Assembly: GCA_963731345.1 (NCBI GenBank)
Contig: CAVSUN010000005.1
Location: 446,311-510,310, forward strand
Source of the DNA: an uncultured Acidobacteriaceae bacterium
GTDB lineage: Bacteria > Acidobacteriota > Terriglobia > Terriglobales > Acidobacteriaceae
Direction of reading: 5' to 3'
Length of the DNA: 64,000 nt
Shown: positions 6,766 through 26,169 of the stretch, piece after piece
How positions within the stretch are numbered: the first letter of the stretch is position 1
Layout of the letters: the number at the start of each line of letters is the position of its first letter
Notes under the pieces: model-generated
Database searches by the model: none
What the model was told of the DNA's origin: nothing
The model's input: only the letters and a program-made list of their open reading frames with translations
Made by a program: the position numbers and the translations under genes

Positions 6766-6939
6766 ATAGCGGCGGCATCTCCTCAGTTTGGCCCATTACG
6801 AGGTCCTGCGTGCGCTGCGTATTTGATGTCAAGCCCTGGCAGGCTAGCCCGCGTGCGGTTGTGACCCTATTTCAGCTCCGTTTTGCACATCTTCCTCAGA
6901 CTGCAACCCATGTCTGGAGCGCATAAAATAGAAATAGCG

Positions 6940-10515: not shown

Positions 10516-10681
10516 AGTCGATCGTCGCTTAGGGAAGGCTCTTACGAGTAAGGCCGATACGCCAGCAGCCGACCAAACCGAACTCACGCCACAGCAAAGC
10601 GGCATGCTTGCGGCGTTAGATTTCTGGATGAACGCAGCCGAAGCGCTCCACTGGGCTGCCAACAAGCGAAACGATCCCAAC

Positions 10682-11638: not shown

Positions 11639-11680
11639 GCCAGCTCCCGCGTTGTGAATGGGAGAATTGGTTGCAATGGC

Positions 11681-11715
11681 GGCGTGTCGCGGCGTCTCGC
11701 GGCGTCTCGCGGCGG
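11681..11715. repeat. 10-bp tandem repeat (GGCGTSTCGC x3 plus a partial copy) inside the left end of the element
   Basis: ggcgtgtcgc ggcgtctcgc ggcgtctcgc ggcgg, read directly from the sequence. Confidence 0.8.
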
Positions 11716-11774
11716 AAACCTGCGTTTTCAGTGCATTGCGCGACTGTTTGAGACCGCGTAGCTCGCGGCGTGGA

Positions 11775-11793
11775 TTCGCGGAATTGCGTGCAA
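11775..11793. repeat. left inner terminal inverted repeat (candidate transposase binding site)
   Basis: ttcgcggaattgcgtgcaa matches the reverse complement of 26040-26058 (ttcgcggatttacgtgcaa) at 17 of 19 positions. Confidence 0.6.
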
Positions 11794-11902
11794 CGACTGA
11801 AATCCGAGCGAACGAACAATCAATAACTTACGGGCTGTAGACGGGGAATCCAAGCGAACGAGAGTCAGGGGAAAACTGCCGCGCTCGCACGACGGATACC
11901 AC

Positions 11903-12289
11903 TCACACACCCTGAGGGGTTGGAGTATGAAACATGACCAGGTTGCTCGCCTCTGTCGGTTTCGCCAGCAAGCAGTCAAAACTCCCCTTCGCCGCAAGTT
12001 CCGCAGCCCACCCGGCCGCCTCAGGTACCAGCGTCGTGTCAACGCCAGCTTCTTGCCAAAGGCGAAGGCACACTGTGGGATATCCCAGCACCGCTGCGAT
12101 ATTGCCTAGTCTCACCCAGTTCTTTACGGATGGCCGAGACGATCCATCCTCCCATCTTGCTACCTGCGATTTTCTGACCTTCATCGCCTTAGCGAGTGTC
12201 GCGTGCGTGAAGCCTAGGTCTCGTATTATCGTGCCGAGCCACGCGCGTTCACCCATCCTTGGTTCTTGAAACCGCAGTACTGTGCCCAT
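11903..12289 (-). CDS. HTH (XRE-like) DNA-binding protein, last gene of the element's early operon
   Basis: ATG at 12289 (MGTVLRFQE). HTH-like FTHATLAKAMKVRKSQVARWEDG. Confidence 0.45.
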   Translation of the reverse strand: MGTVLRFQEPRMGERAWLGTIIRDLGFTHATLAKAMKVRKSQVARWEDGSSRPSVKNWVRLGNIAAVLGYPTVCLRLWQEAGVDTTLVPEAAGWAAELAAKGSFDCLLAKPTEASNLVMFHTPTPQGV

Positions 12290-12452
12290 GAGAAGAATCT
12301 CCTTATTGATTACAGGGGCTGTCCGCCTGCATGGAGACACTCCACTGGGGTGAAATTCGAACAGCGGGCCGTTGCGTGTCTCACATCCGGCCGCTGCCTG
12401 AGGGTCCATTCTTGTGCTGACTGCGACTTCGTAAACTCGTTTGCCGGCTACT

Positions 12453-12986
12453 TCAGCCCACCTTTTGCTGCTTCCACGCCCCGGCCCGTATGAGCATGGA
12501 CTTCAAGGCCCACCATACCTTGTTCGCGTCGGCTAAAGTGCGGATCGCGCGGTCCTCTCGCTTAAGTGGAGATCTGTCCGACTTCAGCCATGCATCGAAC
12601 TGCTCACGCGACCATCCGAGGCGCTGCAGCCCTTTGTCGATTCGGGCGAGGTCATCAGCACTAGCGATCTGGGCCACTTCGGAGCGGACGCCCTTGCGGC
12701 CGGCAATTCCAGCCCGATGGGCCGGATCTCTTGCAGGCACACGACGCCAAGGCTGAGGCCGCTGTCCTAGCTCCTGCCCCAGAGATTCTTTCAGGGTGTC
12801 GATTAACTTTCGAGCTTCGCCGGCGCTGAGTTCGGAAAAGGAAGAGATGCTCCGGGCAAGCTGCTCCGAGGCCCATGCGAGGCGAGCGCCGCGCGAGTCA
12901 ACCTCATCGGTCAACATTCGAGAGTGCCACGCAGCGAAGAGCGTCTGCAATGCAACTACTTGGTCACGCGAGGCGCGTTTGTTCAT
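12453..12986 (-). CDS. GemA/gp16-like (DUF1018-like) phage regulatory protein
   Basis: Size, position directly after the MuB-like gene, and the pattern ALQTLFAAW..LAWASEQL..SSFSELSAGEARKLIDTLK resemble Mu gp16/GemA. 4-nt overlap with the upstream gene. Confidence 0.4.
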   Translation of the reverse strand: MNKRASRDQVVALQTLFAAWHSRMLTDEVDSRGARLAWASEQLARSISSFSELSAGEARKLIDTLKESLGQELGQRPQPWRRVPARDPAHRAGIAGRKGVRSEVAQIASADDLARIDKGLQRLGWSREQFDAWLKSDRSPLKREDRAIRTLADANKVWWALKSMLIRAGAWKQQKVG

Positions 12987-13963
12987 GCGCCCGCCTTCAG
13001 GAGCTGGCGTTCGCGCAGCGTCGCCGTCAGCGAGCGGATGTTTATGTACTGCTTCCCGTGGTTGTAGGCGTCGGTGCGCATTGCCAGCTTGATGGCCTTC
13101 GCGATCATGCCCTGGCTCATATCGGGAGCTTCATGCGCGGCGACCTCGCGCGCTTCTTCTTCGGTCAAACCCGGCAGCACAACCTTGTCCACCAGGCGGT
13201 CGTTCCACTGGCCCAGGCGCGCCGACAGCCGGTTGAATTTGGTGAGCAGCGTGTGCATCCCACACAGTAAGAGCGAGAAATAAGGCGGCCGGTCGAGCAG
13301 GGCCCGAACAGTCTCCAGGCACGTAACCCAGTCGCTCTCGTTGGTTCCGAGGTTCTGCGTCTCGTCAAGGGCCAGCATCACGCGCCGGTTGCGGAAGTCC
13401 CAGGCCAGGTTGCGCCGGATGCGGCACTTGTCGCCGGCAGCCGAGGAGCCGCACGCAATGGCGATATCCTTCATCAGCTGCGTCGGCTTCATGTCCGGAA
13501 CGCAATAAACGTAGTAGGCGAGTCGGCCCTCGCCGTTGCGCGGCATCTCTTCGCGGTTCAGGCGCGCGATCTCATATTCCAGAGTGAATGACTTCTGTGA
13601 TCCCGGCGGACCGTAAACCATAAGAGCCGATGGGCGCTTAAGCAGCTTCTGAATCGAGCGCCGGATCAGCCGCGCGTTCTCGGTCTCGTAGAGCGCGCCC
13701 AGGACCTGTTGCGGCGGTTCGATGGGATGTTCGTGAATAAACTGTTCGATCGCTTGGCACAGCAAACGGTGCGTGCCAGCAATGTTGTTGTAGCGATCGC
13801 TGCTGAATTGCTGAAGTGTTTTCTCGGAGTAGTTGACGCGGCGGGCAAAATCTCCAAGCGTCAGGCCGCTGCGCGTCAGATAGTTTTTCATCAATGGCAT
13901 CACCCGCGCGCGGTCACCGGCTGTTTCGTATAGCTTCTTTTTGTGCTCTTGGCCCTGGGTCAT
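12983..13963 (-). CDS. MuB-like AAA+ transposition ATPase with N-terminal HTH
   Basis: ATG at 13963 overlaps the transposase stop (ATGA). N-terminal HTH LTLGDFARRVNYSEKTLQQFSSDRYNN, Walker A VYGPPGSQKS, Walker B VMLALDETQNL. Confidence 0.75.
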   Translation of the reverse strand: MTQGQEHKKKLYETAGDRARVMPLMKNYLTRSGLTLGDFARRVNYSEKTLQQFSSDRYNNIAGTHRLLCQAIEQFIHEHPIEPPQQVLGALYETENARLIRRSIQKLLKRPSALMVYGPPGSQKSFTLEYEIARLNREEMPRNGEGRLAYYVYCVPDMKPTQLMKDIAIACGSSAAGDKCRIRRNLAWDFRNRRVMLALDETQNLGTNESDWVTCLETVRALLDRPPYFSLLLCGMHTLLTKFNRLSARLGQWNDRLVDKVVLPGLTEEEAREVAAHEAPDMSQGMIAKAIKLAMRTDAYNHGKQYINIRSLTATLRERQLLKAGA

Positions 13964-16011
13964 TCTTCCTCCATCAGTATCAGTATCCGTGCAGACTCGG
14001 TCGGGCTCGGTGGCGCGACCGCCGTGTCGTCCGGGCGAGGCGCGAGCCTGTGCGTCATATGCTCGCCCACCGCGAACGGAAGCACGCGGGCCTTTTCGGC
14101 CAGAACCTCCAGCGTGGAGTGCATCCCGGTTTCTGCAGCCAGGCGCTTCACTTCTGAAATCTGGTCGAGCGTGCGGTTCTTCATCCGGCGGCGCTGTGCC
14201 ACCATCGACGAGACGGCTTCGCCGGACGTGGGCGACTGCCCCAGCTTTTCTTCCGGCTTCGCCCAGCACAGCAGCTTGCCGTAGAGATCCAACACCGCAA
14301 TCCCACTGGGGTCATTGCGGTCGTAGGCAATCACCACATCCTGCTCAGCCAGGTCGTGAAGCACGATGGCCGCGGCATCATCGGCCCCGATATAGCGGCG
14401 CCGTCCGAGATAGATGGCGCACTCATGCACCTTGCGCGGCTTTCGCTCGGCCAGCGACAAGGCCACCTCCGACAATGTCAGAGGTGGACGCTGCGCTGGA
14501 TTCATCTCTGCCGCGAAGACGTCGTTCGGCGTGCGGCCATCCATGCCCTCGCCGGAGTGCGGGGTGTTGTTGTACTGCTCAATCCATGCTGCACATAGCG
14601 CCATGAAGGCGGTTGCGGGCGCATGGTTTGAGTGCCGCAGGTACGATGGCCCCATGCGCAGCAGTTTGCGATGCCGTGCCATCTCGACCGAGGTCTCATC
14701 CGGGCGGAGTTCAGGCTTTCCGCCGGTGTAGGTCGGGAAGTGAACCTCGAACTGCTCCTTCATCGTCTTCCAGAGCCGTTCGATCGGCTTCGACTGGCCG
14801 TGGTAAGGCTGGCAGTACTGAACCTGAATGCCCAGGCGCGCCAGCAGCCCAAGCTCGGCTTCACAGAGTTCGCGTTGCTCGCCCTCTTCTTCGCGCGGAT
14901 TGGCTGGCTCAGCCCCGGCACCAATCTTGCGATACGCCTTGCCGTTGTCGACGTAGAAAATCTCGCACGGCCCGAATTGCAGCAGCGGTCCGCGCATGGC
15001 CGTCGCGATCGACACCGAACTCTCTACCGGGGAGAAAGACCAGCCGACGAGCTTGCGTGAGCGGAAACATTGGATGCCGGTAAAACGCAGGCGCAGCGGA
15101 GTGCCGAACTGCAGCTCAGGGAAGCAGTCGTTCCACACTTCCACATCGCAGATCTTGCCATCGGAGCACCAGATCTGGTTCGCGGCCACGTCGACATAAC
15201 TCCGCTTGACGAAGGGCGAGACGCGGTTTTCGTATTGCCGCAGCCCCTCGCGCGCCAAAATGCGCATTGCAGGGGTGATCTCGGAGGTCGACTTCAGCCA
15301 TTCCCGTATCGTCTTGTAATCCGGAAGATCCTCAGCCGGGATGCCAAAGATGTCGTGCTGCTCGATGAGCAAGCGGTGAATTGCCGCTACGCTAAGCTTC
15401 CGCTGGTCAAGGTAGAGGGATGCCGCAACGGCCTTGGCTTTCTGGTGTTTCTCGAAGAATCGGGACTTGCCTTTGTCGCTTCGCTGGCGATCAGCAAGCC
15501 CTACCAGCCCGCATTCCTGATATCTCTGCTGCCAGCGGAAAATCGTCGAGGGGTCTATCCCATGCTGCTTGGCAAGATGCGCTCGCAGCTTAGCGGCGCT
15601 TCCAAAAATGGACCCATCGGGAAGTCGCAGTTCGCTCCTTGGTACGATCGCGACCAATGGCTCGATGATGGCGAAGCGCTCGCGCGCCTGCACCTGTTCT
15701 GCTGCTGAGGCGAATGCGACTTTTGGCCGCTCGTTCGCGGTGCTCTGCTCGACGGCTGCTGTTGCCAAGGCGCGTTCGCGTTCCCGCCATTTCAGCTGGG
15801 CGGACCAAGGTAGAGAGGAGAGGCGATATTCCAAAACGGGCTTGCCGTTGCGAGAGCGTCGCCTGGTCGCACGCGCTTCCAGTTTTGGGGTCCTACTTTG
15901 TAGGACGCGAAGGCTCCAACCTGTTACTGAGAGCACATCATTGCGACTCAGCCACTGGTCAGCCTCGCTGCCCTTGGCCGCGATCGTACTGGCCGAGCGA
16001 ACGGTGCTCAT
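13960..16011 (-). CDS. MuA-like DDE transposase (rve integrase core)
   Basis: 683 aa. N-terminal DNA-binding region. DDE candidates in IWCSDGKICDV, FYVDNGKAYR and GQSKPIERLWKT. Followed by the ATPase gene, as in Mu A-B. Confidence 0.85.
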   Translation of the reverse strand: MSTVRSASTIAAKGSEADQWLSRNDVLSVTGWSLRVLQSRTPKLEARATRRRSRNGKPVLEYRLSSLPWSAQLKWRERERALATAAVEQSTANERPKVAFASAAEQVQARERFAIIEPLVAIVPRSELRLPDGSIFGSAAKLRAHLAKQHGIDPSTIFRWQQRYQECGLVGLADRQRSDKGKSRFFEKHQKAKAVAASLYLDQRKLSVAAIHRLLIEQHDIFGIPAEDLPDYKTIREWLKSTSEITPAMRILAREGLRQYENRVSPFVKRSYVDVAANQIWCSDGKICDVEVWNDCFPELQFGTPLRLRFTGIQCFRSRKLVGWSFSPVESSVSIATAMRGPLLQFGPCEIFYVDNGKAYRKIGAGAEPANPREEEGEQRELCEAELGLLARLGIQVQYCQPYHGQSKPIERLWKTMKEQFEVHFPTYTGGKPELRPDETSVEMARHRKLLRMGPSYLRHSNHAPATAFMALCAAWIEQYNNTPHSGEGMDGRTPNDVFAAEMNPAQRPPLTLSEVALSLAERKPRKVHECAIYLGRRRYIGADDAAAIVLHDLAEQDVVIAYDRNDPSGIAVLDLYGKLLCWAKPEEKLGQSPTSGEAVSSMVAQRRRMKNRTLDQISEVKRLAAETGMHSTLEVLAEKARVLPFAVGEHMTHRLAPRPDDTAVAPPSPTESARILILMEEE

Positions 16012-16460
16012 GCGGCGCGCTCCAACCTGCGTTCGCTGCTGTAGCGCCCTTTCATGTAGTTGAGCACCACTTTGTAACTGGGGGCCTCTCTACCAAGCAC
16101 AAGGCGCAGAGAATTCCAAATGGCAAATGGAGATCGTCCGGGTGCGATGCGCCCGTGGATCATTTGCGCCACATCCGGGTGCTTTCGGAAATAGCGAGAA
16201 CATCCCGCATCACTGCGAGTGTGAGACAGCGCGGCATAACCCCCGCGTTTGTATTTACCGTACCAACTCCAAACGGTGCTCAGGCAAACACCATGTTGAG
16301 CCGCAATCTCCGAAGCGATTTGCTGCAAGGGCGGCCGCAGCTTATAACGCCTCGCGTACGGGCGATTTTGGGTGAACATCGGAGCCAGAGCCAGCAGCCG
16401 ATCGGCACCCGTGAAGCGACTCGGACGGCTACGTCCCCTATGCTGTGTGGTCGTTTTCAC
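16008..16460 (-). CDS. HTH domain protein (transposase-accessory-like)
   Basis: QQIASEIAAQHGVCLSTVWSWYGKYKRGG is a homeodomain-like HTH. 4-nt overlaps with both neighbouring genes. Confidence 0.5.
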   Translation of the reverse strand: MKTTTQHRGRSRPSRFTGADRLLALAPMFTQNRPYARRYKLRPPLQQIASEIAAQHGVCLSTVWSWYGKYKRGGYAALSHTRSDAGCSRYFRKHPDVAQMIHGRIAPGRSPFAIWNSLRLVLGREAPSYKVVLNYMKGRYSSERRLERAA

Positions 16461-16837
16461 CGGTTTTGTCGTTTCCTCGGAGCGCTGATCTGCTCGACCA
16501 ATTCCTGCGCACGTTCGAGCGTCCGCCTGCAGCCAACGACATGCTCGCCAACCTCGATCAGTTGGAGTGACTGCTCATCGAGCAGCAATCGCTGCAGCCG
16601 GTTTGATCCGACTGCCTCGCAGAATGCCCTTACGAAAGCAGCCGGGAACCGCGCAGCGGACTTGCGGGGCGACGTGAAATCGTTCAGCATGGCCTCAGTG
16701 ACACGGACGCTGAGCACTCGGGCCATCTCTTCCGCGATCTGTGGGCGGCTTTTACCGGAGCGCTTTATCGCATCCGACAGAAGCTGTCGCAGGGCTGCGT
16801 CTGGGCTTATGCCAGTTATTTGTTCATCGCTCGGCAT
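16457..16837 (-). CDS. Ner/Cro-like early regulator (HTH)
   Basis: First gene of the leftward operon, divergent from the repressor-like gene. KSRPQIAEEMARVLSVRVTEAMLNDF is HTH-like. Confidence 0.45.
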   Translation of the reverse strand: MPSDEQITGISPDAALRQLLSDAIKRSGKSRPQIAEEMARVLSVRVTEAMLNDFTSPRKSAARFPAAFVRAFCEAVGSNRLQRLLLDEQSLQLIEVGEHVVGCRRTLERAQELVEQISAPRKRQNR

Positions 16838-16884
16838 ATATCTGCTCGCCCCTCCGTGCTACAAGTAACTAACTCATTTTGGTT

Positions 16885-17958
16885 ATGAGTGAGTGTGGCA
16901 TGCAACCCGTCAAACGTCAATCGAAATCTCGGTCCGGAGCTAGTCTCAAGAAGGCACCTGCGGAGCATACTGACAATTCCCAATTTGCTGCTTTCATCCG
17001 GCGTTTCCGTGAGGATATGGGCTACAAAACCCAACAGGCGCTGGCTTCGAAGCTGGGTGTTGATAGGTCTGCGGTAAGCGCCTGGGAAAGCCCGAAGGGC
17101 TACCGGCCATCAGCCGAAACGCTCATCAAAATCGCGAATCTCGCAGACTATCCCTTGTGTAGCCAACTCTATAGCGAGGCTGGATTCGACAACACCAAGC
17201 TGTGGCACGAGTTAAGACGGCAAGCTGCGCCAGGGGCGGGACTGGTGTCGGTCCCATTTTTGGAGTTGCCCGATCCATTCGACCATCCTGAGCGGGTTTG
17301 GCAAATCGGGCCTCCGCTATCGGATCTGGCAGATCAGTCGAACATCGCTTGCATACGGGTCGGCGGTTCTGTGCCTCCCCTTTTCCCGTTCACTAAGGGG
17401 CAGATTGCGTTTGTTGACCGGTCCAAACTCGACTGGTGGGACCTAATCGACACTGGGAGCCTAGTAGCGGTTCACTTCAGCCGGTACCCTGAGAGGCTTG
17501 GCATCGATCGGGAAACAGAGATGCGCTTTTCATTAGGCGTACCCCCTCCAACCCCACGATCGGCTGGACACCAACGTCGGTTTTCGAAGCGCATCAATTC
17601 CGACAAGCCGCTGACGTATCTCACACCGGATTCAGACGGGATGATCGGCCTTGAGGCGATCCACGTTGGATGGCTGGCTATCGATCGCCCAAACGACCCG
17701 GGCTTCCGCATGCTTGGAGACCGAGACAAGTGGCGCGTTCTGCCGGCTGCTGCGGACCCGTGGCGTGTTGTGCTCAGAGGCGCCGATGTAACGGGAGTCA
17801 GCAGTGCGGGGCTCGTACAGCTAACCCAGTGGGAGACCGAGCAGTCTTGGCAGGATCGGCCGCAGATCAGACCTAAGCACGTAACGCTTATCGGTAAGGT
17901 CGCTGCGTGCCTGAGCTCGTCGTTTGGTTACAAAGCGCAAAGGGGGAAAGAAGAATGA
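16885..17958 (+). CDS. repressor-like protein: XRE HTH plus possible S24/LexA-like C-terminal domain
   Basis: HTH FREDMGYKTQQALASKLGVDRSAVSAWES. C-terminal GGSVPPLFPFTKGQIAFVD resembles the S24 GDSMxP..dGd..vD segment. Start is ambiguous (TTG 16879, ATG 16885, ATG 16900). Confidence 0.55.
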   Translation: MSECGMQPVKRQSKSRSGASLKKAPAEHTDNSQFAAFIRRFREDMGYKTQQALASKLGVDRSAVSAWESPKGYRPSAETLIKIANLADYPLCSQLYSEAGFDNTKLWHELRRQAAPGAGLVSVPFLELPDPFDHPERVWQIGPPLSDLADQSNIACIRVGGSVPPLFPFTKGQIAFVDRSKLDWWDLIDTGSLVAVHFSRYPERLGIDRETEMRFSLGVPPPTPRSAGHQRRFSKRINSDKPLTYLTPDSDGMIGLEAIHVGWLAIDRPNDPGFRMLGDRDKWRVLPAAADPWRVVLRGADVTGVSSAGLVQLTQWETEQSWQDRPQIRPKHVTLIGKVAACLSSSFGYKAQRGKEE

Positions 17959-18602
17959 CAACCGCAGCCCTGCAGGCCGATATCGATAAAACACAGCAGC
18001 AAATCGATGCGCTCGCGAAGGCCCGTGAAGACCGGCGCCAAAAGGTCGGCGAGGTCGAATCTGAGCGTCGGAAGTGGCTCATTGCAGCTCGGGTTGATAA
18101 CGAACCAAAAGCGCAAAAGGAAATTGAAAAATACGCGGATCAGCTCGCTGCTATGCAGCGGGATGACTCCCTCGACTATGCGGTCCTCGTGGAGCTACAG
18201 GGGCGCCTCAGGGAGCAAAAGGCCAATTTGGATCGGCAGCATCGGCGTGAGCAGTGCCTTAAGGTCGCGGCACTCATCGAACCGCACGTTGACGGAAAGC
18301 TTGAGAAGCGCCTGCTTGAAGTAGCACTCGAATTGAAGGACATTCTTCTGAAGCTCAGATCGAGGGATGCCGAAATCGGTGCGGCCCTGCGCCAACTAGG
18401 AGGGAACTTCCCCCGCGTTGCAATGGAGCTCCCTTATAGAGAGCGCGACCGAAAAAATGCGGTCGGAAGCATCCTGGAAGGTTTTTTCCCCATGCTAGGC
18501 GGCGGCTGGTGCGGCAATCCGCCGGTCGATGCCGCTAAGTTGTTCGGGGATTGGGTCGAGTTGCTCAACGAGGAGTGCGACAAAACCGCCGCTGCCGCCT
18601 AA
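17955..18602 (+). CDS. coiled-coil hypothetical protein
   Basis: ATG at 17955 overlaps the repressor stop (ATGA), with a GGGGGAAAG Shine-Dalgarno-like run upstream. Heptad-rich and charged. Confidence 0.5.
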   Translation: MTTAALQADIDKTQQQIDALAKAREDRRQKVGEVESERRKWLIAARVDNEPKAQKEIEKYADQLAAMQRDDSLDYAVLVELQGRLREQKANLDRQHRREQCLKVAALIEPHVDGKLEKRLLEVALELKDILLKLRSRDAEIGAALRQLGGNFPRVAMELPYRERDRKNAVGSILEGFFPMLGGGWCGNPPVDAAKLFGDWVELLNEECDKTAAAA

Positions 18603-18622
18603 GTTTTCCGAAGGGAGAAGCA

Positions 18623-18829
18623 ATGGCGCTTCGCTGCATCATGGCGCTGCCGGAACGCGTCGCGCAGGGGTTGTGCCAAGGCGATATCCCCCCGGAGCGC
18701 GCTCGGAGGAATGCAGTCACCTGCTGCGATGAGTGCTCCAGAGAATATCGCCGCCATAGGCGTTCTGAGCACGCGGAACGAAAATGCCGCCGCCTCTGTG
18801 GTAGGGCGTTCCGTAAACGAAGGTCCTGA
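18623..18829 (+). CDS. small basic Cys-rich (zinc-ribbon-like) protein
   Basis: ATG at 18623 after GGGAGAAG. CCDECSREYRRHRRSEHAERKCRRLC. Confidence 0.35.
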   Translation: MALRCIMALPERVAQGLCQGDIPPERARRNAVTCCDECSREYRRHRRSEHAERKCRRLCGRAFRKRRS

Positions 18830-18876
18830 GGGGCTGTGCTCAGTGCGCACAGTGCTGTTCATGAGAGCGGGAGGCG

Positions 18877-19113
18877 GTGAAGTTTTCGATGAGAGACTCA
18901 AGGGCGGTTACTTATGTGATTCCCCAGGGTGCGATCCTCGAAGAGACGGAAGAGATAGCGAGTTGTCAGTTGGTCGCTGATGGAGCGACCTGCAATCGCC
19001 CAGGCAAGGTCTTTAGGGTCCTGGAAGGCGACTGCGAGCCCGACGAGGTCTGCTTCTGCTCAGTATGTGTGTTCAACGCGCTGGGGCCGGCCGAAGATTT
19101 TCCGAAGAACTAG
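18877..19113 (+). CDS. small Cys-containing hypothetical protein
   Basis: ORF only. Start uncertain (GTG 18877 or ATG 18889). Confidence 0.3.
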   Translation: MKFSMRDSRAVTYVIPQGAILEETEEIASCQLVADGATCNRPGKVFRVLEGDCEPDEVCFCSVCVFNALGPAEDFPKN

Positions 19114-19236
19114 GACACCGGAGATTTTCTAGGTTGTCAGAGTTGAAAGCTTCTCTCGCCCGGTAAACCTCCTGACGGCGAGAGGCGAAAAGGGGAGCGC
19201 GGTTGCCCAGCCGTGCTCCCCTTGGAGATGAGGAAA

Positions 19237-20229
19237 ATGGCAGGCAAAAAAACTCTCGAAGGTCAATGGATGCCACTGGTCGATTCAGCAGTCCAGGGCG
19301 TGCCGCTCACTGCTGACGACCTAGACCAGATGGTGAAAAACTTTCAGCCGACCTCAAAGGCGGATCACATCCCCGTCAGGTTTGGGCCTGCGAAAGGCAA
19401 CGGGCCTATTGTGGCGAAGATCAGCGCGCTCAAGAATGACGGCTCGGTTCTGTCCGGCAAATTGGCTGATGTCGATCCCGGATTTAACGAATTGATGCAG
19501 GCGGGCGTGCTCGGTCGGCGCACCAGTCGTTCGCTTTCCTTCGAGCGCGATGCCGACAAGGGCGCTTCGCTCGCGGAGATGGGATTCAAGCCTCCGCGCA
19601 TTTACCACGCAGGGAGCTGGCATGACGGACCCTCGTCCTCGGCCGCTCTCGACGATCTCGTGGGTGCGCATCGCGAAGGCGAGGCCATCCAGTTCTGTGC
19701 TGGCGATGCTGGACTCGTAGAAGTGGTTCTGTCTCTACAGCCGCGACGCGCAGCGAAGTCAGGGGGCGCCAACAAAAGAAACTCTGAGCGGCTCAATGAC
19801 CTTGCGAAGGCTAGGCAGCAGGAAAAGGGAATTTCATTCTGTGAGGCCTTGGAAGCGGTCGCGCGCGAAAACCCCAAGCTCACACTGCCGGACTATCTCT
19901 CGGGCAACGTGCAGCAGTCAGCTTCCAACGTTTTGGCGAATGAGGGATGGCGGTACCAAACCAACAGTGAGGATCTCGCCGAGCGAGCCAACGCGCTGGC
20001 CTATGAGAAGAACATCAGCTACGAGGAAGCGCTAAGCCGCGTCGTGGAAGAGAATCCGCGCCTGACCCTCCCTGATGGAGTGTTCAGCTTCGACGAAGGC
20101 ACGCGTCCGAAAACAAACTCTGAAAAGTTGGCGGACCTGGCCAAGGCGCGCGCGCGGGAGCACCGCCTCAGCTACTGCGACGCTCTGACTGACGTGGCCC
20201 GGAAACATCCCGAGCTCACGCGCGGCTGA
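19237..20229 (+). CDS. hypothetical protein with three C-terminal ~38-aa repeats
   Basis: Repeats NSE.L..LAKAR..E..(I/L)S(F/Y)(C/E)(D/E)AL..V.R(E/K).P.LT at 19780-19896, 19963-20079 and 20116-20226. Start chosen at ATG 19237. Confidence 0.55.
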   Translation: MAGKKTLEGQWMPLVDSAVQGVPLTADDLDQMVKNFQPTSKADHIPVRFGPAKGNGPIVAKISALKNDGSVLSGKLADVDPGFNELMQAGVLGRRTSRSLSFERDADKGASLAEMGFKPPRIYHAGSWHDGPSSSAALDDLVGAHREGEAIQFCAGDAGLVEVVLSLQPRRAAKSGGANKRNSERLNDLAKARQQEKGISFCEALEAVARENPKLTLPDYLSGNVQQSASNVLANEGWRYQTNSEDLAERANALAYEKNISYEEALSRVVEENPRLTLPDGVFSFDEGTRPKTNSEKLADLAKARAREHRLSYCDALTDVARKHPELTRG

Positions 20230-20252
20230 AGTTTGAAGGCGGCAAACGAATC

Positions 20253-23200
20253 ATGTCCACCGGCGACAACAACATCACGCTGACCATCCAGGCGGTCGAT
20301 GCCTCGGGACCGGCGATCCAGCAGTTCACCACGCGGGTGGTGGGAGCGGCGAACAGCGCCACGGAGGCGACTAATCGCTATAAGTCGGCGCTGGAGCAGC
20401 TCGGCCCGGCAGCGGCCGCCGGCAATAGTCAAGCCGCGGGCATCATCGCGCAATACAGGGCGGAGGCTGAGCAGGCGACCGCTGCTACTCGCGCTGCGGG
20501 TGCAGCCGGGGCGGCCGCAGGCGACCAGATTCGCACCGGCATGGGCGGCGCTTATGGACAGATGCGCCTGGTGAGCGGCCTGGGCCGCGAGATGGGGCTG
20601 AACATCGATTACGGGCTGCGGCGCGTGCTGACCACAATTCCAGGAGTTACCTCGGGCCTCACCGCGTTGCTTCCCATCTTCGGCGCGATTGGCGTCGTCG
20701 CCCTCTTTGCTCCGCTGGTTGAGGGGGCATACCACTTTGTGGAAGGGATCTCCGATGTCAACAAGGAGATGGATGCCTTCATTGAAAAGGCGCAGGAGGC
20801 TGCACAGCAGAAGCTTATTGATTCCGGGTCGATCGAGACTACCACCGCCGCACTCGATCAGATTGGCAAACAACTCGACGAGCTATCTGCGAAGCAGGCG
20901 CACTGGAAAGAGCAGTGGAGGATCGATGGCACCAACATCACGCTGCCCGGTGCTGGGTTCTTTCAGCACATCATTCCAACCTCCGACATTTGGGATCGAT
21001 ACGACGATCAGCGTTCGGCGCAGCTAGCTCAGATGCAGAAGGAGGGCCAACAACATCAACGGGATCTCGTCCATGAGCAAAACGTCGCGCAGATCGATTT
21101 GACCCATGCCGGCGATGCAGTGCTGGGAACGCAGGCGAAGATCACAGCAGAGAAGGAGAAACAGCTCGCTCTCGATGAGGAGCAGCGCCGCTATCAGCAG
21201 GAAAATGCGGATGCCTATGCGAAGACGGCCGGAGTCCAACCGCGCCAAGGTGTAGGCACGGACACGCAGGCGGCAAAGGACTGGATTGCGATTGTAAAGG
21301 CCAGGGCCGATGCCACGCTCGACGCCAGGCGCGAAGCGGAAGAAGTTATCAAGCTCGACGCGCAGGCACGCAACGCGCAGCTCGGCGGAATCTCTTTACT
21401 GCGCGCACAAGAGGAAGAAGCCATTGTAGACATCACGCGCAAATATCGCGAGAATGGCCAGTCGCGTCAGGCAATCGATCACGCGACTGCGGACCTGCGT
21501 GCCAAGTACGACGCCGATATCCAAAGGTCGCTCGACGAACAGGCGCAAAAGATCGCACAACTGAGACATGAGGCTGAATCGGCCGGTCTGTCGGGGATCG
21601 CAAACATCCAGAGCGACCGCAGCTATCAGCTCGCCCAAATCGATTCTCCCTCGGTGTTGCGCGACACCTCGCCGGAAGCGGCTGCCGGGCGCGAGCAAGA
21701 GCGGGTGCTCGCCAATCAGAAAGCCGATGCCGACATCCTGGCCGAGCGCAAGAGGTTCAGCGATGAAGTGGCTGAGATTGTGCAGCGCTCTTCGTCGCAG
21801 GAGCTGACTGGCTACGCAAAGATCGCAGCCGAAGAACAGCGGCAGCTCACCGATCTAACCAAAGCGTTCAAAAAGAGCTATGGCAGTTTGGATTTCTTCG
21901 ATCCCACCAATCAGGCCGTGGCCGTTCAGGGAGAACTGCAAAGGAATGCCGCCTCGCAGGCGATTCAACAGAATGCCGCACGCGAGCGGCTGAAGTACAC
22001 CGAGGAGGCAGATCGGCAGATTGCGCAGACAGAGGCTGAAGCGGCGCGATCGCTGTTGCCTCCGTGGCAAGCTGCGCAGCAGAAGATCATCGACGACTAC
22101 GACCAACGCGTCCAGAAGATCCGCGAGGACGAGGCACAGCAAACGGCAGCAGTCGCACAGAACTCAGCCGAGCGCGTGCTAATCGAAGACCAGGCGAACC
22201 GGCAGATCGCCGCATCGCTCCAGCTCGCGGAGTCGCAAATGCTTCATGAGATACAGCAGCAGCGCGACCAGCTCGCGGGCCAGCTGCAGTCCTTCTTCGA
22301 TAACCCTGCGAAATACATGGAGCAGCGCGCCAAGCGTCTGGGCTTCGAGTTCATCGCCAACATCATCCAGGGCGCAGAACAAAACAACGGCCGGCTCTCA
22401 GGCTTCATTAATGGCCTGTTCGGCGAGAACCGGCTGGGCACGAGCTCCTCGCCGCGCGAAGCATTTGGACAGCTCTTTGGCGCGCACAACAGCGCGCCTG
22501 AAGGCTTGCTTGCAGTTGCAGGCAATGCTCTGACGAGCTCCGGCTCCGTGTTGTATCAAGCCGGGACAGTTCAGCTCGAAGCTGCAGAAGCGCTGCTCCG
22601 GATTTCTGGCACGGCAGGTGGTCCCTCGGGAGTCGGCGCGGCTGGAATTCAGAACCGGAGCGGTGGCGGGTTCAGCGGTGAATCGCTTGGGCTGCCAACC
22701 AGCGGCGAAGGGCCTGGCTTCTTCAGCGGAGATCTCGGCGGCACAATTCCCGGCGCCACGGGCGGCATCGGCGCAGCCGCGAGTGCAGCAGGAGGAATCG
22801 CAGGGGCTGCGGGCGCCGGCGGCATCAGTTCGACCATCACGCAGGGACTTCAGCTCTCGTCGCTTTTGCACAATGCGTTCAGCACGCCAGGCTCGGCCCC
22901 GCTGCTGAATCCCGGCGGATTTCAGCCCAGCGACATTCCGCCCACGAACGATGCGGGTGTACCTGGAACGGTCCCGGGCACGGGAGGCGCTGGTTCCGGT
23001 GCAGGCTCGATCGGCCTCGCCGGTGGCGCGCTCACTGCCATCACCGGCGGCCTGGCGCTCTATGGTGGGTTGTCGGCTGCATACAGCGCTCCCACGTTCG
23101 CCAGCGGGCTTGCGGGCGCGGGGTCAACAGCGCTAACCGGCGCCGGCATCGGTACGGCTTTCGCTCCTGGCGTCGGAACGGCGATCGGCGCTGCCGCAGG

Positions 23201-23855
23201 TTTCGCAGCAGGTCTCTTCGCTGATCTCTTCGGCGATCACGGGCGCTCGAAGATGCAGCGCTACAACACCATCACCGTGATTCCTGGGCTGCAAAAAGAC
23301 CTGGACAGCTTCAGCTTTGGCGGCGGCTCGTTCGACTCGGCCTCGCAGGCGATCACGCAATTGCAAATTCAATCGATCAGCCAAGCTAAGCAATTCGGCT
23401 CGGGCGCCATGAGCTATTACCAGAGCGTGATGGTGCCGGAATTCCAGCAGGCACTGGCGCAGGCATCACGCGAAGGCGCGGCGGGACGTAGCAACGTGCA
23501 ATTCGGTGTTTCGCAGTTTCACCGCGGCGGCGACATCAACGACTTCGGTGATCTCTGGACGTCGCCCACAACCGGCTTTATCCACGCGGAACTCGGCGAG
23601 CGCGTCATCAGCCGGCTGGAGAACTCAGGTGGCTCGCGATCGCTGAGCCAGGGCAGCGCGGCGGCTTACATCGCCAGCGCCGGCGCTCGCTCGCTGGCTG
23701 TGCAAAACAATGGCGGCGAGAGCCACGTTCATGTTCACATTCACGCGCTCGACGTTGCCGACTTCCGTTCATTCCTGCGGCGCGGCGGCGCGGCGGAAGT
23801 TCAGCGAGCGGTGAATCAGAACGCCGCGCGCTACGCAGGAAAGGCACTGAACTGA
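20253..23855 (+). CDS. tape-measure-like giant protein (coiled coil plus Gly/Ala-rich hydrophobic region)
   Basis: 1200 aa. Long Q/A/E/R-rich helical region, membrane-like segments (LTALLPIFGAIGVVALFAPL), and a G/A-rich region around residues 790-990. Composition is typical of phage tail tape measure proteins. Confidence 0.6.
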   Translation: MSTGDNNITLTIQAVDASGPAIQQFTTRVVGAANSATEATNRYKSALEQLGPAAAAGNSQAAGIIAQYRAEAEQATAATRAAGAAGAAAGDQIRTGMGGAYGQMRLVSGLGREMGLNIDYGLRRVLTTIPGVTSGLTALLPIFGAIGVVALFAPLVEGAYHFVEGISDVNKEMDAFIEKAQEAAQQKLIDSGSIETTTAALDQIGKQLDELSAKQAHWKEQWRIDGTNITLPGAGFFQHIIPTSDIWDRYDDQRSAQLAQMQKEGQQHQRDLVHEQNVAQIDLTHAGDAVLGTQAKITAEKEKQLALDEEQRRYQQENADAYAKTAGVQPRQGVGTDTQAAKDWIAIVKARADATLDARREAEEVIKLDAQARNAQLGGISLLRAQEEEAIVDITRKYRENGQSRQAIDHATADLRAKYDADIQRSLDEQAQKIAQLRHEAESAGLSGIANIQSDRSYQLAQIDSPSVLRDTSPEAAAGREQERVLANQKADADILAERKRFSDEVAEIVQRSSSQELTGYAKIAAEEQRQLTDLTKAFKKSYGSLDFFDPTNQAVAVQGELQRNAASQAIQQNAARERLKYTEEADRQIAQTEAEAARSLLPPWQAAQQKIIDDYDQRVQKIREDEAQQTAAVAQNSAERVLIEDQANRQIAASLQLAESQMLHEIQQQRDQLAGQLQSFFDNPAKYMEQRAKRLGFEFIANIIQGAEQNNGRLSGFINGLFGENRLGTSSSPREAFGQLFGAHNSAPEGLLAVAGNALTSSGSVLYQAGTVQLEAAEALLRISGTAGGPSGVGAAGIQNRSGGGFSGESLGLPTSGEGPGFFSGDLGGTIPGATGGIGAAASAAGGIAGAAGAGGISSTITQGLQLSSLLHNAFSTPGSAPLLNPGGFQPSDIPPTNDAGVPGTVPGTGGAGSGAGSIGLAGGALTAITGGLALYGGLSAAYSAPTFASGLAGAGSTALTGAGIGTAFAPGVGTAIGAAAGFAAGLFADLFGDHGRSKMQRYNTITVIPGLQKDLDSFSFGGGSFDSASQAITQLQIQSISQAKQFGSGAMSYYQSVMVPEFQQALAQASREGAAGRSNVQFGVSQFHRGGDINDFGDLWTSPTTGFIHAELGERVISRLENSGGSRSLSQGSAAAYIASAGARSLAVQNNGGESHVHVHIHALDVADFRSFLRRGGAAEVQRAVNQNAARYAGKALN

Positions 23856-24286
23856 TGCCGGCCGGGGCGAGCGAAACCGCGATCCTCACAACGACCAAAC
23901 AGGTTCTCGACGCCGTAGCTACGAGGATGAGAAAGAAGCGCAGCTCCAGAATCGCAATAGTCGGCTTCGTTGATGGCGAGATCGGCGCTGGCGGCTCTTC
24001 TGAGGAAAGGCGCAGCTGCCAGGTTGCGGCTCAGCGCGCCGTGAATGCTAAGGCCTATCTCGTCAAAAATCACGATATCGATCCGGGGCGGATCATGGTA
24101 CGCGTTGGCAAAGGGCATTCTGGTGTTGCGGAGATCGTCCTGCTGCCGGACAGTAATGAAAACGGCACAGAGAGTCCATGGCTTCAGGAGACGTCTCCTG
24201 TTGATGAAAACGTGACAAAACCAATTGAGGCCGATCTGATGCAGCCGGCTGGGATCAAGCAGAGCAAAGCTCCGGGTAGTGTCTGA
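23855..24286 (+). CDS. OmpA_C-like (peptidoglycan-binding-like) domain protein
   Basis: IAIVGFVDGEIGAGGSSEERRSCQVAAQRAVNAKAYLVKNHDIDPGRIMV parallels the OmpA C-terminal motif (vGhtD....n..LS..RA..V..yLv..gi...Ri). The start overlaps the upstream stop (TGATG). Confidence 0.5.
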   Translation: MPAGASETAILTTTKQVLDAVATRMRKKRSSRIAIVGFVDGEIGAGGSSEERRSCQVAAQRAVNAKAYLVKNHDIDPGRIMVRVGKGHSGVAEIVLLPDSNENGTESPWLQETSPVDENVTKPIEADLMQPAGIKQSKAPGSV

Positions 24287-24348
24287 AATCTGCGTTGAAG
24301 TAGTGGCGGGTGGTGGGAAGCGCTGACATCACTGGTGACGAGCGTAAC

Positions 24349-24376
24349 TTGACGTTTGCACCGTTTCTGCTACACT
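24349..24376 (+). promoter_or_regulatory. candidate sigma70-type promoter for the methyltransferase gene
   Basis: TTGACG (24349-24354), 16 nt, TACACT (24371-24376), 28 nt upstream of the ATG at 24404. Confidence 0.25.
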
Positions 24377-24403
24377 TCCCGCGCTGTTCTGGCACCGGCA
24401 CAA

Positions 24404-25960
24404 ATGAGCCCCCGAAACCGTGGTGCGAAACCTCGTAGTTCTGCGCTCGTCGATACGCAGGTCATCTACTGCGGCGACAACCTCGACCAGCTTGCGAAAT
24501 TGCCTCCCGGCTGTGTTGACCTGACCTACCTCGACCCTCCGTTCAACTCGAATCGCAACTATGAAGTCTTCTGGTACGAGAATCGGGAGAAGCGTTTCTT
24601 CGAGGATCGACATGCCTCAACGCAGGCCTATATCGATTTCATGCGCCCGCGATGCGAGCAGTTGCATCGGGTTTTGAAACCGAAAGGTACGCTCTACTAT
24701 CACTGCGACTGGCACGCCTGCCATTATGTGAAAGTGATGCTCGACCAAATCTTCGGCGAGCAGGGCTTCGTAAACGAGATCATCTGGAAACGGCAATCCT
24801 CACACAATGATGCAAAGCAAGGCTCGAAGCATCTGGGCCGGGTGCATGACACGATTCTCATGTACACGAAAGGCCCGGACTATTACTTCAAGCATCTATA
24901 CCGTCCCTACGACCCCGACTACGTCGCGGACTTCTATCGCCATGTAGAAGCCGAAACCGGACGCCGCTATCAGCTCGGCGATCTGGGCGCTCCCGGCACG
25001 GATTCTCCATCCAAGGGAAACCCGCACTATGAGTTTTTGGGCGTCACTCGATATTGGCGCTATAGCAAAGAGAACATGGAAAAGCTGTACCGGGAAGGAC
25101 GCATCGTGCAAACAAAACCCGGCAGCGTGCCGCGATTAAAGCGCTACCTCGACGAAGGCAAGGGCGTGCCCCTAGGCTCCGTCTGGGACGACATAGGCCC
25201 GGTGCAGGGAGTGGCGAGGGAGCATATTGGGTTCCCAACACAGAAGCCATTGAAGCTGCTCGAACGAATCATCGAAATTTCCTCCGAACCCGGAGATGTT
25301 GTACTGGACGCGTTCTGCGGCTGCGGGACGGCACTTGAGGCCGCGCAGAGCGCGGGGAGGAATTGGATTGGACTCGACATCTCGCCGACTGCCTGCCGAG
25401 TCATGGCGAAGCGCCTGCGCAACAACTGCGGCCTGAGCGAAAGCGAAGCGTTGTGGCGTATTGGTCGCGGCTTTGTTGTTCGCGATCTGCCGTGGACGGA
25501 ACCGCAACTTCGAAAGTTGCCCCCATTCGAATTTGAAAATTGGGCCGTCATTGCGGTAAACGGGACGCCGAACCGCAAGCAGGTTGGCGACATGGGAATC
25601 GATGGCCGTATCTATCCCGTCTCTGCGCTGCCGCGAGGCAGGGCACGCGAAGACCAATTCGCGTTCATGGATGACTGGTATCCCATCCAGGTCAAGCAAT
25701 CCGAGAAAATCGGGCGTCCCGACGTTGACGCGTTCGAAGCGGTGATGATGCGCGAAAACCGAACAAAAGGATTTATGGTGGGCTTTGATTTCACTCTCGA
25801 CGCAGAGCGGGAGATTGCCCGTTTTGAATCCCGCGCGGGGCGGCAGATCATTGCAAGGCGGGTTAAGGAACTGCTCGAAGATGAGGATGTCGTGAGGCGT
25901 ATCCCACCATCGCCGGAGAAAGCGAGCGCGGCGCGGCTGCCGAAGGCAGCGCCCGCCTAG
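24404..25960 (+). CDS. beta-class N6A/N4C DNA methyltransferase fused to a C-terminal Mrr_cat-type (PD-(D/E)xK) nuclease-like domain
   Basis: Motif IV LDPPFN precedes motif I VLDAFCGCGT (beta-class order). C-terminus FENWAVIAV..VGDMGIDGRIY..YPIQVKQSEKIGRPDVDAFEAV..KGFMVGFDFT matches the Mrr catalytic-domain pattern. Confidence 0.85.
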   Translation: MSPRNRGAKPRSSALVDTQVIYCGDNLDQLAKLPPGCVDLTYLDPPFNSNRNYEVFWYENREKRFFEDRHASTQAYIDFMRPRCEQLHRVLKPKGTLYYHCDWHACHYVKVMLDQIFGEQGFVNEIIWKRQSSHNDAKQGSKHLGRVHDTILMYTKGPDYYFKHLYRPYDPDYVADFYRHVEAETGRRYQLGDLGAPGTDSPSKGNPHYEFLGVTRYWRYSKENMEKLYREGRIVQTKPGSVPRLKRYLDEGKGVPLGSVWDDIGPVQGVAREHIGFPTQKPLKLLERIIEISSEPGDVVLDAFCGCGTALEAAQSAGRNWIGLDISPTACRVMAKRLRNNCGLSESEALWRIGRGFVVRDLPWTEPQLRKLPPFEFENWAVIAVNGTPNRKQVGDMGIDGRIYPVSALPRGRAREDQFAFMDDWYPIQVKQSEKIGRPDVDAFEAVMMRENRTKGFMVGFDFTLDAEREIARFESRAGRQIIARRVKELLEDEDVVRRIPPSPEKASAARLPKAAPA

Positions 25961-26039
25961 GTCTCTTGATGTTGTTCCAACGACACGGCGAGCCCTAATT
26001 CGGGCTGCCGGATACGTGTGTCTAGCCGCTTTGCCACTA

Positions 26040-26058
26040 TTGCACGTAAATCCGCGAA
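26040..26058. repeat. right inner terminal inverted repeat
   Basis: ttgcacgtaaatccgcgaa. Its reverse complement matches 11775-11793 at 17/19. Adjacent ATTGCAAC (26063-26070) pairs with GTTGCAAT at 11670-11677. Confidence 0.6.
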
Positions 26059-26169
26059 GTTTATTGCAACGATCGCGCCCAGCCACACGTCCTGGTGCAT
26101 GCCGGTCCTTGCCAACTGCCCTATAATGGAACGTTCTCCCCTCCGTTCTCATCCAGTTAGTAAGGGGTA

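Follow-up and report, generated by a model that had tools for sequence, protein, structure and literature searches.

Transposable phages of the Mu and D3112/B3 types are built around two proteins, a DDE transposase that has a Mu-type C-terminal domain and, encoded after it, an AAA+ target ATPase. The two are governed by a switch between a divergent repressor and a gene at the Ner position, and the TG...CA ends of these phages, with subterminal repeats, are joined to the host DNA through 5-bp target duplications. Here, we describe a compact Mu-type element of 14,435 bp that shares these features, the duplications being found in its relatives. It lies between accA and korA at positions 11653-26087 of a 64,000-nt stretch of DNA (the window) from an uncultured Acidobacteriaceae bacterium (assembly GCA_963731345.1, contig CAVSUN010000005.1, positions 446,311 to 510,310). 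Like Mu, which has mom there, the element carries a DNA modification gene (a methyltransferase) at its far end, but unlike Mu it is without virion, packaging, and lysis genes, and its transposase is only ~24% identical to that of D3112-type phages. In Mu, everything after A and B is on one strand, whereas in the lineage of the element the late genes are located behind the repressor, on the opposite strand.

Three other groups of described elements are relevant. Laboratory mini-Mu comprises the ends together with A and B (and the repressor), has no late genes, and transposes alone. A helper Mu packages laboratory mini-Mu by its headful machinery, together with flanking host DNA. The elements considered here differ in being natural, diversified, and under selection, in carrying a tape measure and a 215-aa gene specific to the family as well as a conserved dead protease-scaffold, and in that any dependence on a helper is inferred from their genes. 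The second group consists of the capsid-redirecting phage satellites, exemplified by SaPI1 (CpmB), P4 (Sid), and the PICI PmCI172, which the element resembles in being about one-third the size of its putative helper and in having its own regulation, integration, and replication. To our knowledge, the well-described satellites (P4-like, PICI/SaPI, cfPICI, PLE, and PICMI) all use recombinases and episomal replication; these are tyrosine or serine recombinases, whereas the element would use DDE transposition. It also differs from known satellites in possessing a full-length tape-measure gene and in having no visible small terminase or packaging-redirection gene. Third, the TnsB-TnsC pair of Tn7 and CAST elements and the TniA-TniB pair of Tn5053 belong to the same transposase/ATPase superfamily; TGTG-type ends and 5-bp duplications are likewise features of Tn7-like elements and of Tn5053, but the element has no TnsA, TniQ/TnsD, or resolvase, and its regulators and relatives are those of phages. 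Mini-Mu units have been reviewed (PMC3145075). Of the satellites, PmCI172 has a Mu-like myovirus as helper but is itself integrase-based (PMC6893505), and CpmB of SaPI1 binds the capsid protein through a C-terminal motif of the helper scaffold, so that a smaller head forms, of T=4 in place of T=7 (PMC6893505). A search of the literature gave no description of a Mu-type or transposition-based satellite.

The order of genes in the window is dnaE (6883-10419), accA (10604-11638), a block of 15 open reading frames (ORFs), korA (26170-28011), and korB. There is no compositional break, the GC content being 59.7% in the element against 58.6% and 59.1% in the flanks, and the exact ends were set by aligning the window edges with L003, L004, and L006, three related loci found via the transposase. 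The left terminus lies at 11653 (TGTGAATGGGAGAATTGGTTGCAAT) and the right at 26087 (...ATTGCAACGATCGCGCCCAGCCACA). The original prediction, made by a model from the letters of the window, had proposed a unit at 11665-26070; the inverted repeats do bound it, but the limits are slightly wider than supposed. TGTG-N13-GTTGCAAT is present, inverted, at both ends, and the pattern TGTGNNTGGGNGNNNTNGTTGCAAT has its sole two matches in the 64 kb at 11653-11677 (plus strand) and 26063-26087 (minus strand), against an expectation of 0 from 100 shuffles of the window. The left of these terminal inverted repeats lines up with the TGTG ends seen in L003, L004, and L006; the right one ends in ...CAGCCACA, a terminus that is also found in L003, L004, L166, and L170. 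Farther in are subterminal repeats at 11778-11795 on the plus strand (GCGGAATTGCGTGCAACG, with counterparts in L006 and at the right end) and 26037-26055 on the minus strand (reverse complement GCGGATTTACGTGCAATAG). Both are repeats of the GTGCAA(T/C) core, from the inner portion of the terminal repeat, and they are presumed to be second transposase-binding sites, the arrangement resembling the multiple transposase sites in the ends of Mu. Some 3.5 tandem 10-bp units (CGGCGTNTCG) occupy 11680-11715 (plus strand), just inside the left end. Short tandem repeats of GATGG or GGGAAG type are found there also in L003, L004, and L006, such that the position is kept among relatives while the sequence varies; a host factor, a regulator, or the packaging machinery could bind to them.

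The element is flanked by CGCGT on the left (11648-11652), presumed to be a copy of the target site, and by CGTCC on the right (26088-26092), so that a 3-bp repeat (CGT) stands in place of a clean 5-bp duplication; loss of 2 bp from a CGCGT duplication would explain this. That the element is an insertion is shown by three contigs, the first of them from an unoccupied site. The original prediction had suggested a search for an empty accA-korA junction, and one was found in a 158-nt contig of soil metagenome run X2, which joins window positions 11590-11642 (4 mismatches) to 26107-26184 (0 mismatches) through 27 nt, AAATCCCGCGTCAGGCGAATGCCGCAC, containing a single CGCGT. This contig establishes accA and korA as native neighbors, with the site unoccupied in a related strain. 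L001, a Logan contig from another sample, corresponds to window 11623-26117 and so extends exactly 30 nt past either end of the element. Logan contigs are assembled with k = 31, and an extent of k-1 (30) nt beyond each end is therefore as expected of a presence/absence bubble in a de Bruijn graph. The independent ENA contig L002, which looks like a long-read assembly and is 99.8% identical to the element, stops at 11651. It matches the element from there to 23176, in the glycine-rich stretch of the tape-measure gene, beyond which it consists of unrelated DNA (L002:1-2835, with TctC and DUF6295 genes); the idea that it represents a second insertion was set aside, and it was treated as a probable assembly chimera. 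In another assembly that breaks just outside element ends, contig PLPU01000015 (L015; 13,474 bp) consists of one compact element of 13,433 bp with 23 and 18 nt of flank, which carry a CGAGC duplication. Neither reads nor contigs of runs X5-X8 gave coverage across the ends of the element in the window. We regard it as very probable that window 11653-26087 is an intact, bounded, Mu-type transposable insertion.

The transposition arm occupies the left part of the element and is encoded on the minus strand. The transposase (13960-16011; 683 aa) matches phrog_310 over its full length (8.5e-83) as well as Mu-transpos_C and rve, the Mu-type C-terminal domain (PF09299) scoring 27.9 bits against a cutoff of 21.7. 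When searched against the PDB as a profile, it matched TnsB (4e-21) and MuA (4FCY, 9.5e-18); the profile was needed, because a search with the single sequence found no match. D284, D355, and E411 align with the DDE motifs of MuA, and the catalytic triad is therefore intact. The start of the next gene, encoding a MuB-like AAA+ ATPase (12983-13963; 326 aa), overlaps the transposase stop, and its product matches AAA_22 (9.7e-14) and phrog_296, annotated 'DNA transposition protein' (1.2e-18). The view that both proteins are of Mu type has thus held up, in that the transposase is of the MuA/TnsB superfamily, and relatives occur in ~40-kb Mu-like contigs. An origin of the pair in a non-Mu family, the outcome named as damaging to that view, is countered by the full-length phrog_310 match, and no TnsA, TniQ/TnsD, or resolvase domain was detected in the scanned ORFs (Pfam, PHROGs, and NCBIfam).

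The first gene of the transposition operon (16457-16837) encodes a 126-aa regulator, F8 (phrog_2345, 1e-18), that is kept in compact and full-size relatives alike and can be called Ner-like by position only. It is followed by the gene for a 150-aa helix-turn-helix (HTH) protein (16008-16460), a paralogue of the N-terminal HTH of the transposase. A 72-aa ORF on the same strand (16816-17034) overlaps the start of the repressor-like gene and has no family match; it is probably not a gene, the gene at the Ner position being that at 16457-16837. Between the two arms is a divergent control region of 62 bp (16838-16899) containing ACTCAT-N7-ATGAGT, a candidate operator. A scan for promoters and terminators gave no promoters above chance, and window-wide RNA scans detected no tRNA or Rfam family anywhere in the 64 kb. 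The last two genes of the minus-strand arm encode F7, a 177-aa protein with no hidden Markov model (HMM) match (12453-12986), and a 128-aa HTH_3 protein (11903-12289, in an ORF extendable to 12409) that replaces the ~285-aa F4 gene of the relatives. F7 had been taken for a GemA-like protein. No match to a GemA profile was found (Pfam at E ≤ 0.01 returned a spurious DFF-C match only), so that HMM support for the assignment is absent, and the resemblance is one of position in the full-size relatives, where the homologue is found 5-9 kb downstream of the transposase and immediately precedes an HTH_17 gene, a gemA/mor-like position.

The element is not alone. A scan for the transposase, with one genome per species, yielded 79 loci, nearly all in metagenome-assembled genomes (MAGs) of Acidobacteriaceae and Terriglobia. 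Bounded elements, sought as TG...CA pairs that have terminal sequences in common and are flanked by a direct repeat of 5 bp, number eight besides that of the window: L004 (14,554 bp), L007 (13,605 bp), L008 (the same as L003; 14,777 bp), L011 (12,855 bp), L012 (15,713 bp), L015 (13,433 bp), L019 (13,046 bp), and L029 (13,567 bp). The additional copies that the original prediction had proposed to look for have therefore been recovered in related genomes, and the nine bounded elements span 12.9-15.7 kb. All eight relatives have TGTG...CACA ends, distinct perfect 5-bp duplications, and differing neighbors, and as these duplications lie at different sites, the relatives have transposed in their compact form. 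The 5-bp duplication that was anticipated is thus perfect in the relatives, but not in the window, with its CGT.

Common to the family are a first arm encoding the regulator, the HTH protein, the transposase, the ATPase, and the 177-aa protein and a second encoding the repressor-like protein and proteins of 215, 1200, and 330 aa. The same reduced gene set occurs in at least 15 diverged loci. An OmpA-like gene is found in three copies of the family, and the methyltransferase in the window copy alone. In the six core families that were divergent enough to be informative, pairwise ratios of nonsynonymous to synonymous substitution (dN/dS) are 0.12-0.35, the 330-aa protein giving 0.13-0.15 and the 1200-aa protein 0.35, which indicates that the core genes are under purifying selection and are not debris.

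Individual loci show further variation. In L007 (7493-9822), an IS21-type pair (IstA-like, 517 aa; IstB-like, 259 aa) stands in place of the 215-aa and tape-measure genes, and the MAG that contains it also has an intact sister copy, L008, with a transposition module that is 98.4% identical. In L011, a gene for a DnaB-type helicase (14885-16306) lies within the predicted boundaries, next to the end; either this is cargo or the boundary call of L011 (21/30 repeat, ACTGT duplication) is wrong. Loci L030-L051 form a second Mu-type group, with transposases 31-33% identical to that of the window. They have in common only a transposase-ATPase module of ~3 kb (81-92% nucleotide identity), with otherwise different neighbors, and occur in multiple copies per MAG (at least seven loci in PLXE01), often on short contigs. 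One of them, L043 (8474-20414), has 23/30 inverted repeats, an AAAGC duplication, a length of 11.9 kb, and a transposase near the end.

The same transposase profile applied to IMG/VR gave 79 loci at 26-46% identity, mostly on contigs of ~33-46 kb, and the closest transposases outside the family are those of Mu-like siphophages of ~40 kb. One such phage, a contig of 40,028 bp covered by L110 and L170, was annotated as an example. Its repressor side, which lies on the other strand from the transposase, encodes the repressor, endolysin, spanin, small and large terminase, portal, and a Mu F-like protein, then a head protease (phrog_976, 2.5e-53), the major head protein, and neck and tail proteins, followed by the tape measure (phrog_339) and a J-like fiber. 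On the transposase side are the regulator, transposase, ATPase, ~6 kb of early genes, the 177-aa homologue, and the HTH_17 protein. A marker map of ~150 loci revealed the divergent two-arm layout in every full-size member. The organization that had seemed non-canonical is as originally described, with a transposition operon transcribed toward the nearby left end and a block behind the repressor running rightward, but because all mapped full-size members share it, it is a trait of the whole lineage and not a peculiarity of the element. Relative to the full-size phages, the compact form keeps this layout but has two deletions, which remove ~6 kb between the ATPase and 177-aa genes from the early arm and the lysis, terminase, portal, capsid, neck, tail-tube, and tail-tip genes from the late arm. 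The ...CAGCCACA terminus is common to compact elements and to full-size L166 and L170; L166 ends in ...ACGTAATTCCGGCAGCCACA, and the right ends of L003 and L004 match it perfectly over 20 nt. These comparisons show that the compact family is a reduced derivative of the ~40-kb Mu-like siphophages.

In a neighbor-joining tree of 113 transposases, constructed without support values, the compact elements fall into at least five clades interleaved with full-size phages, and some tape measures of compact elements resemble those of full-size phages more closely than they resemble each other. The compact-specific 215-aa gene occurs across the transposase clades and so speaks against multiple origins. 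We read the pattern as probably that of one old compact lineage in ongoing module exchange with full-size phages. Among the 79 transposase loci in IMG/VR, the compact layout is absent, apart from one contig of intermediate size. This is L142 (IMGVR_UViG_3300029952_001682; 22.6 kb), which has the family transposase, homologues of the major capsid protein (3.7 kb upstream) and of the tape measure (8.9 kb upstream), and no terminase or portal match; it may be a reduced form of intermediate size.

The rightward block (16900-25960) is tightly packed on the plus strand. Scans of the ORFs against Pfam and PHROGs revealed no terminase, portal, capsid, tail-tube, or lysis genes, the window has no similarity to the portal, major capsid, neck, or tail proteins of L170, and no capsid-fold candidate, packaging enzyme, lysis gene, or small-terminase-like gene was found in the element. 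The claim that structural genes are missing is therefore correct for portal, terminase, capsid, and lysis genes, but homologues of a tape measure and of a protease/scaffold are present. The first of these, F2 (20253-23855; 1200 aa), has no direct family match of its own and contains hydrophobic glycine-rich segments. The family alignment headed by the window protein matches L170 over residues 83-1199, and the L019 copy is 41-48% identical over ~680 aa to L170, L172, and L173. In L170, the homologue matches phrog_339 and sits between the tail and J-like genes, at the tape-measure position of the ~40-kb contigs. A predicted structure of the C terminus was uninformative (predicted local distance difference test score (pLDDT) 46.6). 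Neither the 1200-aa nor the 330-aa protein gave a tblastn match among INPHARED phages, and profile searches of the PDB with both families returned nothing usable.

The 330-aa protein, F1 (19237-20229), is identified as a prohead protease/scaffold homologue by phrog_976, by predicted structure, and by alignment. It matches phrog_976 over ~75 residues only, as do seven family members. Its AlphaFold model (pLDDT 77.7) comprises an N-terminal β-rich domain and three helix-hairpin modules, and in a library of viral structures (BFVD) it found 12 matches at E ≤ 1e-3, with scaffolding, prohead protease, and Mu I-like proteins the best; against the PDB, Foldseek gave weak herpesvirus protease matches alone (E > 0.01). 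A pattern scan of IMG/VR with the 330-aa alignment found no relative, homologues being reached only through the tape-measure loci. The His/Ser/His residues of GHP...KKRS...LRH are invariant in 6/6 aligned full-size proteases. Both conserved histidines are missing in every compact copy that retains the protease domain (the truncated L011 copy is without it); in the window, FG-PAKG and SLAEMGF stand in their place. The last ~40 residues of the full-size proteases (S..L.DLA.AR..EK.ISF.EAL..VA.E.PELT) are retained, in two to four copies in complete compact proteins and in three in the window, from nt 19780, 19963, and 20116. As both histidines have been lost and the C-terminal motif has been kept and repeated, the 330-aa protein appears from its sequence to be a scaffold homologue that is dead as a protease and carries its C-terminal motif in several copies. 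Like CpmB of SaPI1, it is scaffold-like and has a C-terminal motif in common with a scaffold, here that of the full-size relatives.

The block is headed by the repressor-like F3 (16900-17958; 352 aa; N-terminal HTH_3/CI-type), the stop of which is overlapped by the start of F5 (17955-18602), a coiled-coil protein of 215 aa found in compact elements only. Then follow two small ORFs of 68 and 74 aa without family match (18623-19113). PHROGs provided no useful match for F5, for either small ORF, or for the ~285-aa end gene of the relatives. Beyond the tape-measure gene are an accessory protein of 143 aa with an OmpA-like (peptidoglycan-binding) domain (23855-24286), also present in L004 and L009, and an N6/N4 DNA methyltransferase with a weak Mrr_cat-like tail (24356-25960, with an alternative start at 24404; PF01555, 7e-48; phrog_67, 2.9e-64). 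The methyltransferase is missing from all relatives and is cargo specific to the window copy, to which extent the suggestion that the rightward block is cargo was right; the block consists mostly, however, of conserved core, namely the tape measure, the dead protease-scaffold, and the 215-aa protein.

What, then, is the element for? It has kept its own regulation and its integration/replication functions and lacks the genes for an autonomous particle, and at 12.9-15.7 kb, a narrow range, the family is about one-third the size of the related phages (33-46-kb contigs). We give about an even chance to its being a helper-dependent phage satellite, in effect a self-transposing natural 'mini-Mu' that uses the particles of a full-size helper; among the readings first offered, that of a heavily reduced Mu-like prophage or satellite fits best. 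The repressor-like protein would keep the transposition operon off; upon de-repression, the transposase and ATPase would copy the element to new sites in the genome by MuA/MuB transposition. Transfer between cells would occur in particles of a co-resident full-size relative that recognizes the same kind of ends, with headful packaging proceeding from one end and taking in flanking host DNA. Capsid interference or size redirection is suggested by the dead scaffold and by a size that stays close to one-third of the full genome, and by the logic of SaPI CpmB the 330-aa protein would bind the capsid protein of the helper and either interfere with head assembly or resize the head. Redirection of the capsid by this protein is suggested by analogy and is tentative; on balance we lean somewhat against it. 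The tape-measure homologue may serve in DNA delivery or in the evasion of exclusion, and the methyltransferase would be anti-restriction cargo. That a previously unrecognized class of satellite is involved, characterized by DDE transposition, module exchange with ~40-kb helpers, head hijack by a dead scaffold with multiplied capsid-binding motifs, and a tape measure of its own, is possible, and we place it a little short of even.

Several observations weigh against a satellite. No helper phage is present within the 64-kb window, and the reading is drawn from the genes. The target duplication of the window copy (CGCGT/CGTCC) is imperfect, and the interleaved transposase clades may mean that the compact architecture arose more than once by decay. 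The homologues of virion genes are encoded in the same packed block as the repressor-like gene, a layout that fits expression in the prophage state, for defense or exclusion, at least as well as late piracy. Finally, we know of no satellite with a tape-measure gene and have no explanation for the retention of F2.

The layout of the block leads to the alternative that survives best, a Mu-type transposon with a block for defense or exclusion that is expressed in the prophage state, the whole spreading by transposition and ordinary horizontal transfer and never specifically packaged. The dead scaffold and the tape measure, co-expressed with the repressor, would poison head or tail assembly, or the entry of DNA, of related phages. 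The overlap of the repressor-like and 215-aa genes and the tight packing of 16900-25960 on one strand are in keeping with this, as is a catalytically dead protease that keeps and multiplies a capsid-targeting motif in the manner of a dominant-negative protein, and the methyltransferase, of a type typical of defense and counter-defense, lies in the same block. Prophage proteins that block the assembly of invading phages are known (PMC10884400). A role in defense leaves unexplained, however, both the narrow size range at about one-third of a full-size genome and the retention of a full-length 1200-aa tape measure, and we consider it unlikely, if deserving of serious attention. The two readings overlap and are not exclusive, because interference with the helper is usual in satellites.

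Less probable still is a decaying, defective prophage, in which most late genes have been deleted and the leftover fragments of virion genes have no function. Descent of the element from the ~40-kb lineage is clear, L007 has visibly been degraded by IS21 insertion or replacement, and the transposase tree hints at possible multiple origins. All ORFs of the window copy are, however, intact, the same reduced set recurs in the diverged loci, and the low dN/dS values extend to the protease homologue and the tape measure; perfect target duplications flank eight relatives, which occupy different sites, and the 215-aa gene crosses clades. Decay is thus largely refuted by the data on selection and recurrence, and we view it as improbable.

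A vertically inherited, domesticated, and immobile locus fixed between accA and korA would be more improbable again. Its support comes from two relatives and from the decayed target duplication of the window. In L006, the host of which is 91% identical to the window in DnaE and AccA, a related element begins 7 nt after accA, with a left flank (ACCCACAT before TGTG, as compared with TCCCGCGT before TGTG in the window) that looks orthologous; the transposases are 55% identical and the ATPases 81%. In L004, ~20 nt separate an element from the conserved korA promoter block that is also found in the window, and an MFS gene is the left neighbor. The original prediction would have suffered had relatives held the same genes at this locus with no repeats, but L006 and L004 both carry repeats, L004 has a perfect duplication, and eight other members are located elsewhere. 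Indeed, the perfect CCAGC duplication of L004 and its different left neighbor mark it as a separate insertion. The empty site in a related strain, two independent assemblies that break at the element ends, the eight members at unrelated sites, and a transposase with an intact catalytic triad are all contrary to an immobile locus. The window and L006 may nevertheless derive from one ancient insertion that recombination has since reshuffled.

The region upstream of korA merits comment in its own right. The block at window 26107-26170 (CCTTGCCAACTGCCCTATAATGGAACGTTCTCCCCTCCGTTCTCATCC...) is conserved in L004 and mostly so in L176 (CTAGCC for CTTGCC), and it has no Rfam match. In L176, korA has another upstream neighbor and no element, and homology to the window begins at 26108. 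The block is a promoter/leader at a synteny breakpoint, farther upstream of which the genomes differ. Site-specific insertion at accA/korA was considered but is unsupported, given eight other elements elsewhere with unrelated duplications and the synteny breakpoint seen in L176; a local preference for insertion upstream of korA is possible.

A cellular transposon of the Tn7/Tn5053/Tn552 type, with TnsB/TniA and TnsC/TniB, is highly improbable: the PDB profile match is slightly better for CAST TnsB than for MuA, but the ORFs contain none of the partner domains named above, the full-length match of the transposase is to a phage family (phrog_310), the repressor and regulator are of phage type, and the nearest relatives are inside complete ~40-kb phages, in which terminase, portal, capsid, and tail genes are present. 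A small virus of novel type and autonomous, its unconventional particle built from the 215-, 330-, and 1200-aa proteins, would account for the conservation of all three across the family and for the hydrophobic glycine-rich segments of the largest, but is scarcely credible when two of the three are plain homologues of a tailed-phage tape measure and protease/scaffold and there is no capsid-fold candidate, packaging enzyme, or lysis gene.

Whatever its mode of spread, the element has led to the documentation of a lineage of Mu-like phages with a two-arm divergent genome. Compact elements of this kind are probably undercounted and missed by virus detection, as the IMG/VR loci, L142 excepted, are without the compact layout. 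If the satellite reading is true, Mu-type transposition would represent a new route to the satellite lifestyle, and the dead protease-scaffold, with its repeated capsid-targeting motifs, would be a candidate for a new mechanism of capsid interference. Because Mu-type packaging takes in flanking host DNA, such elements would possibly also be an efficient vehicle of host gene transfer in the Acidobacteria, a dominant and poorly tractable phylum of soil.

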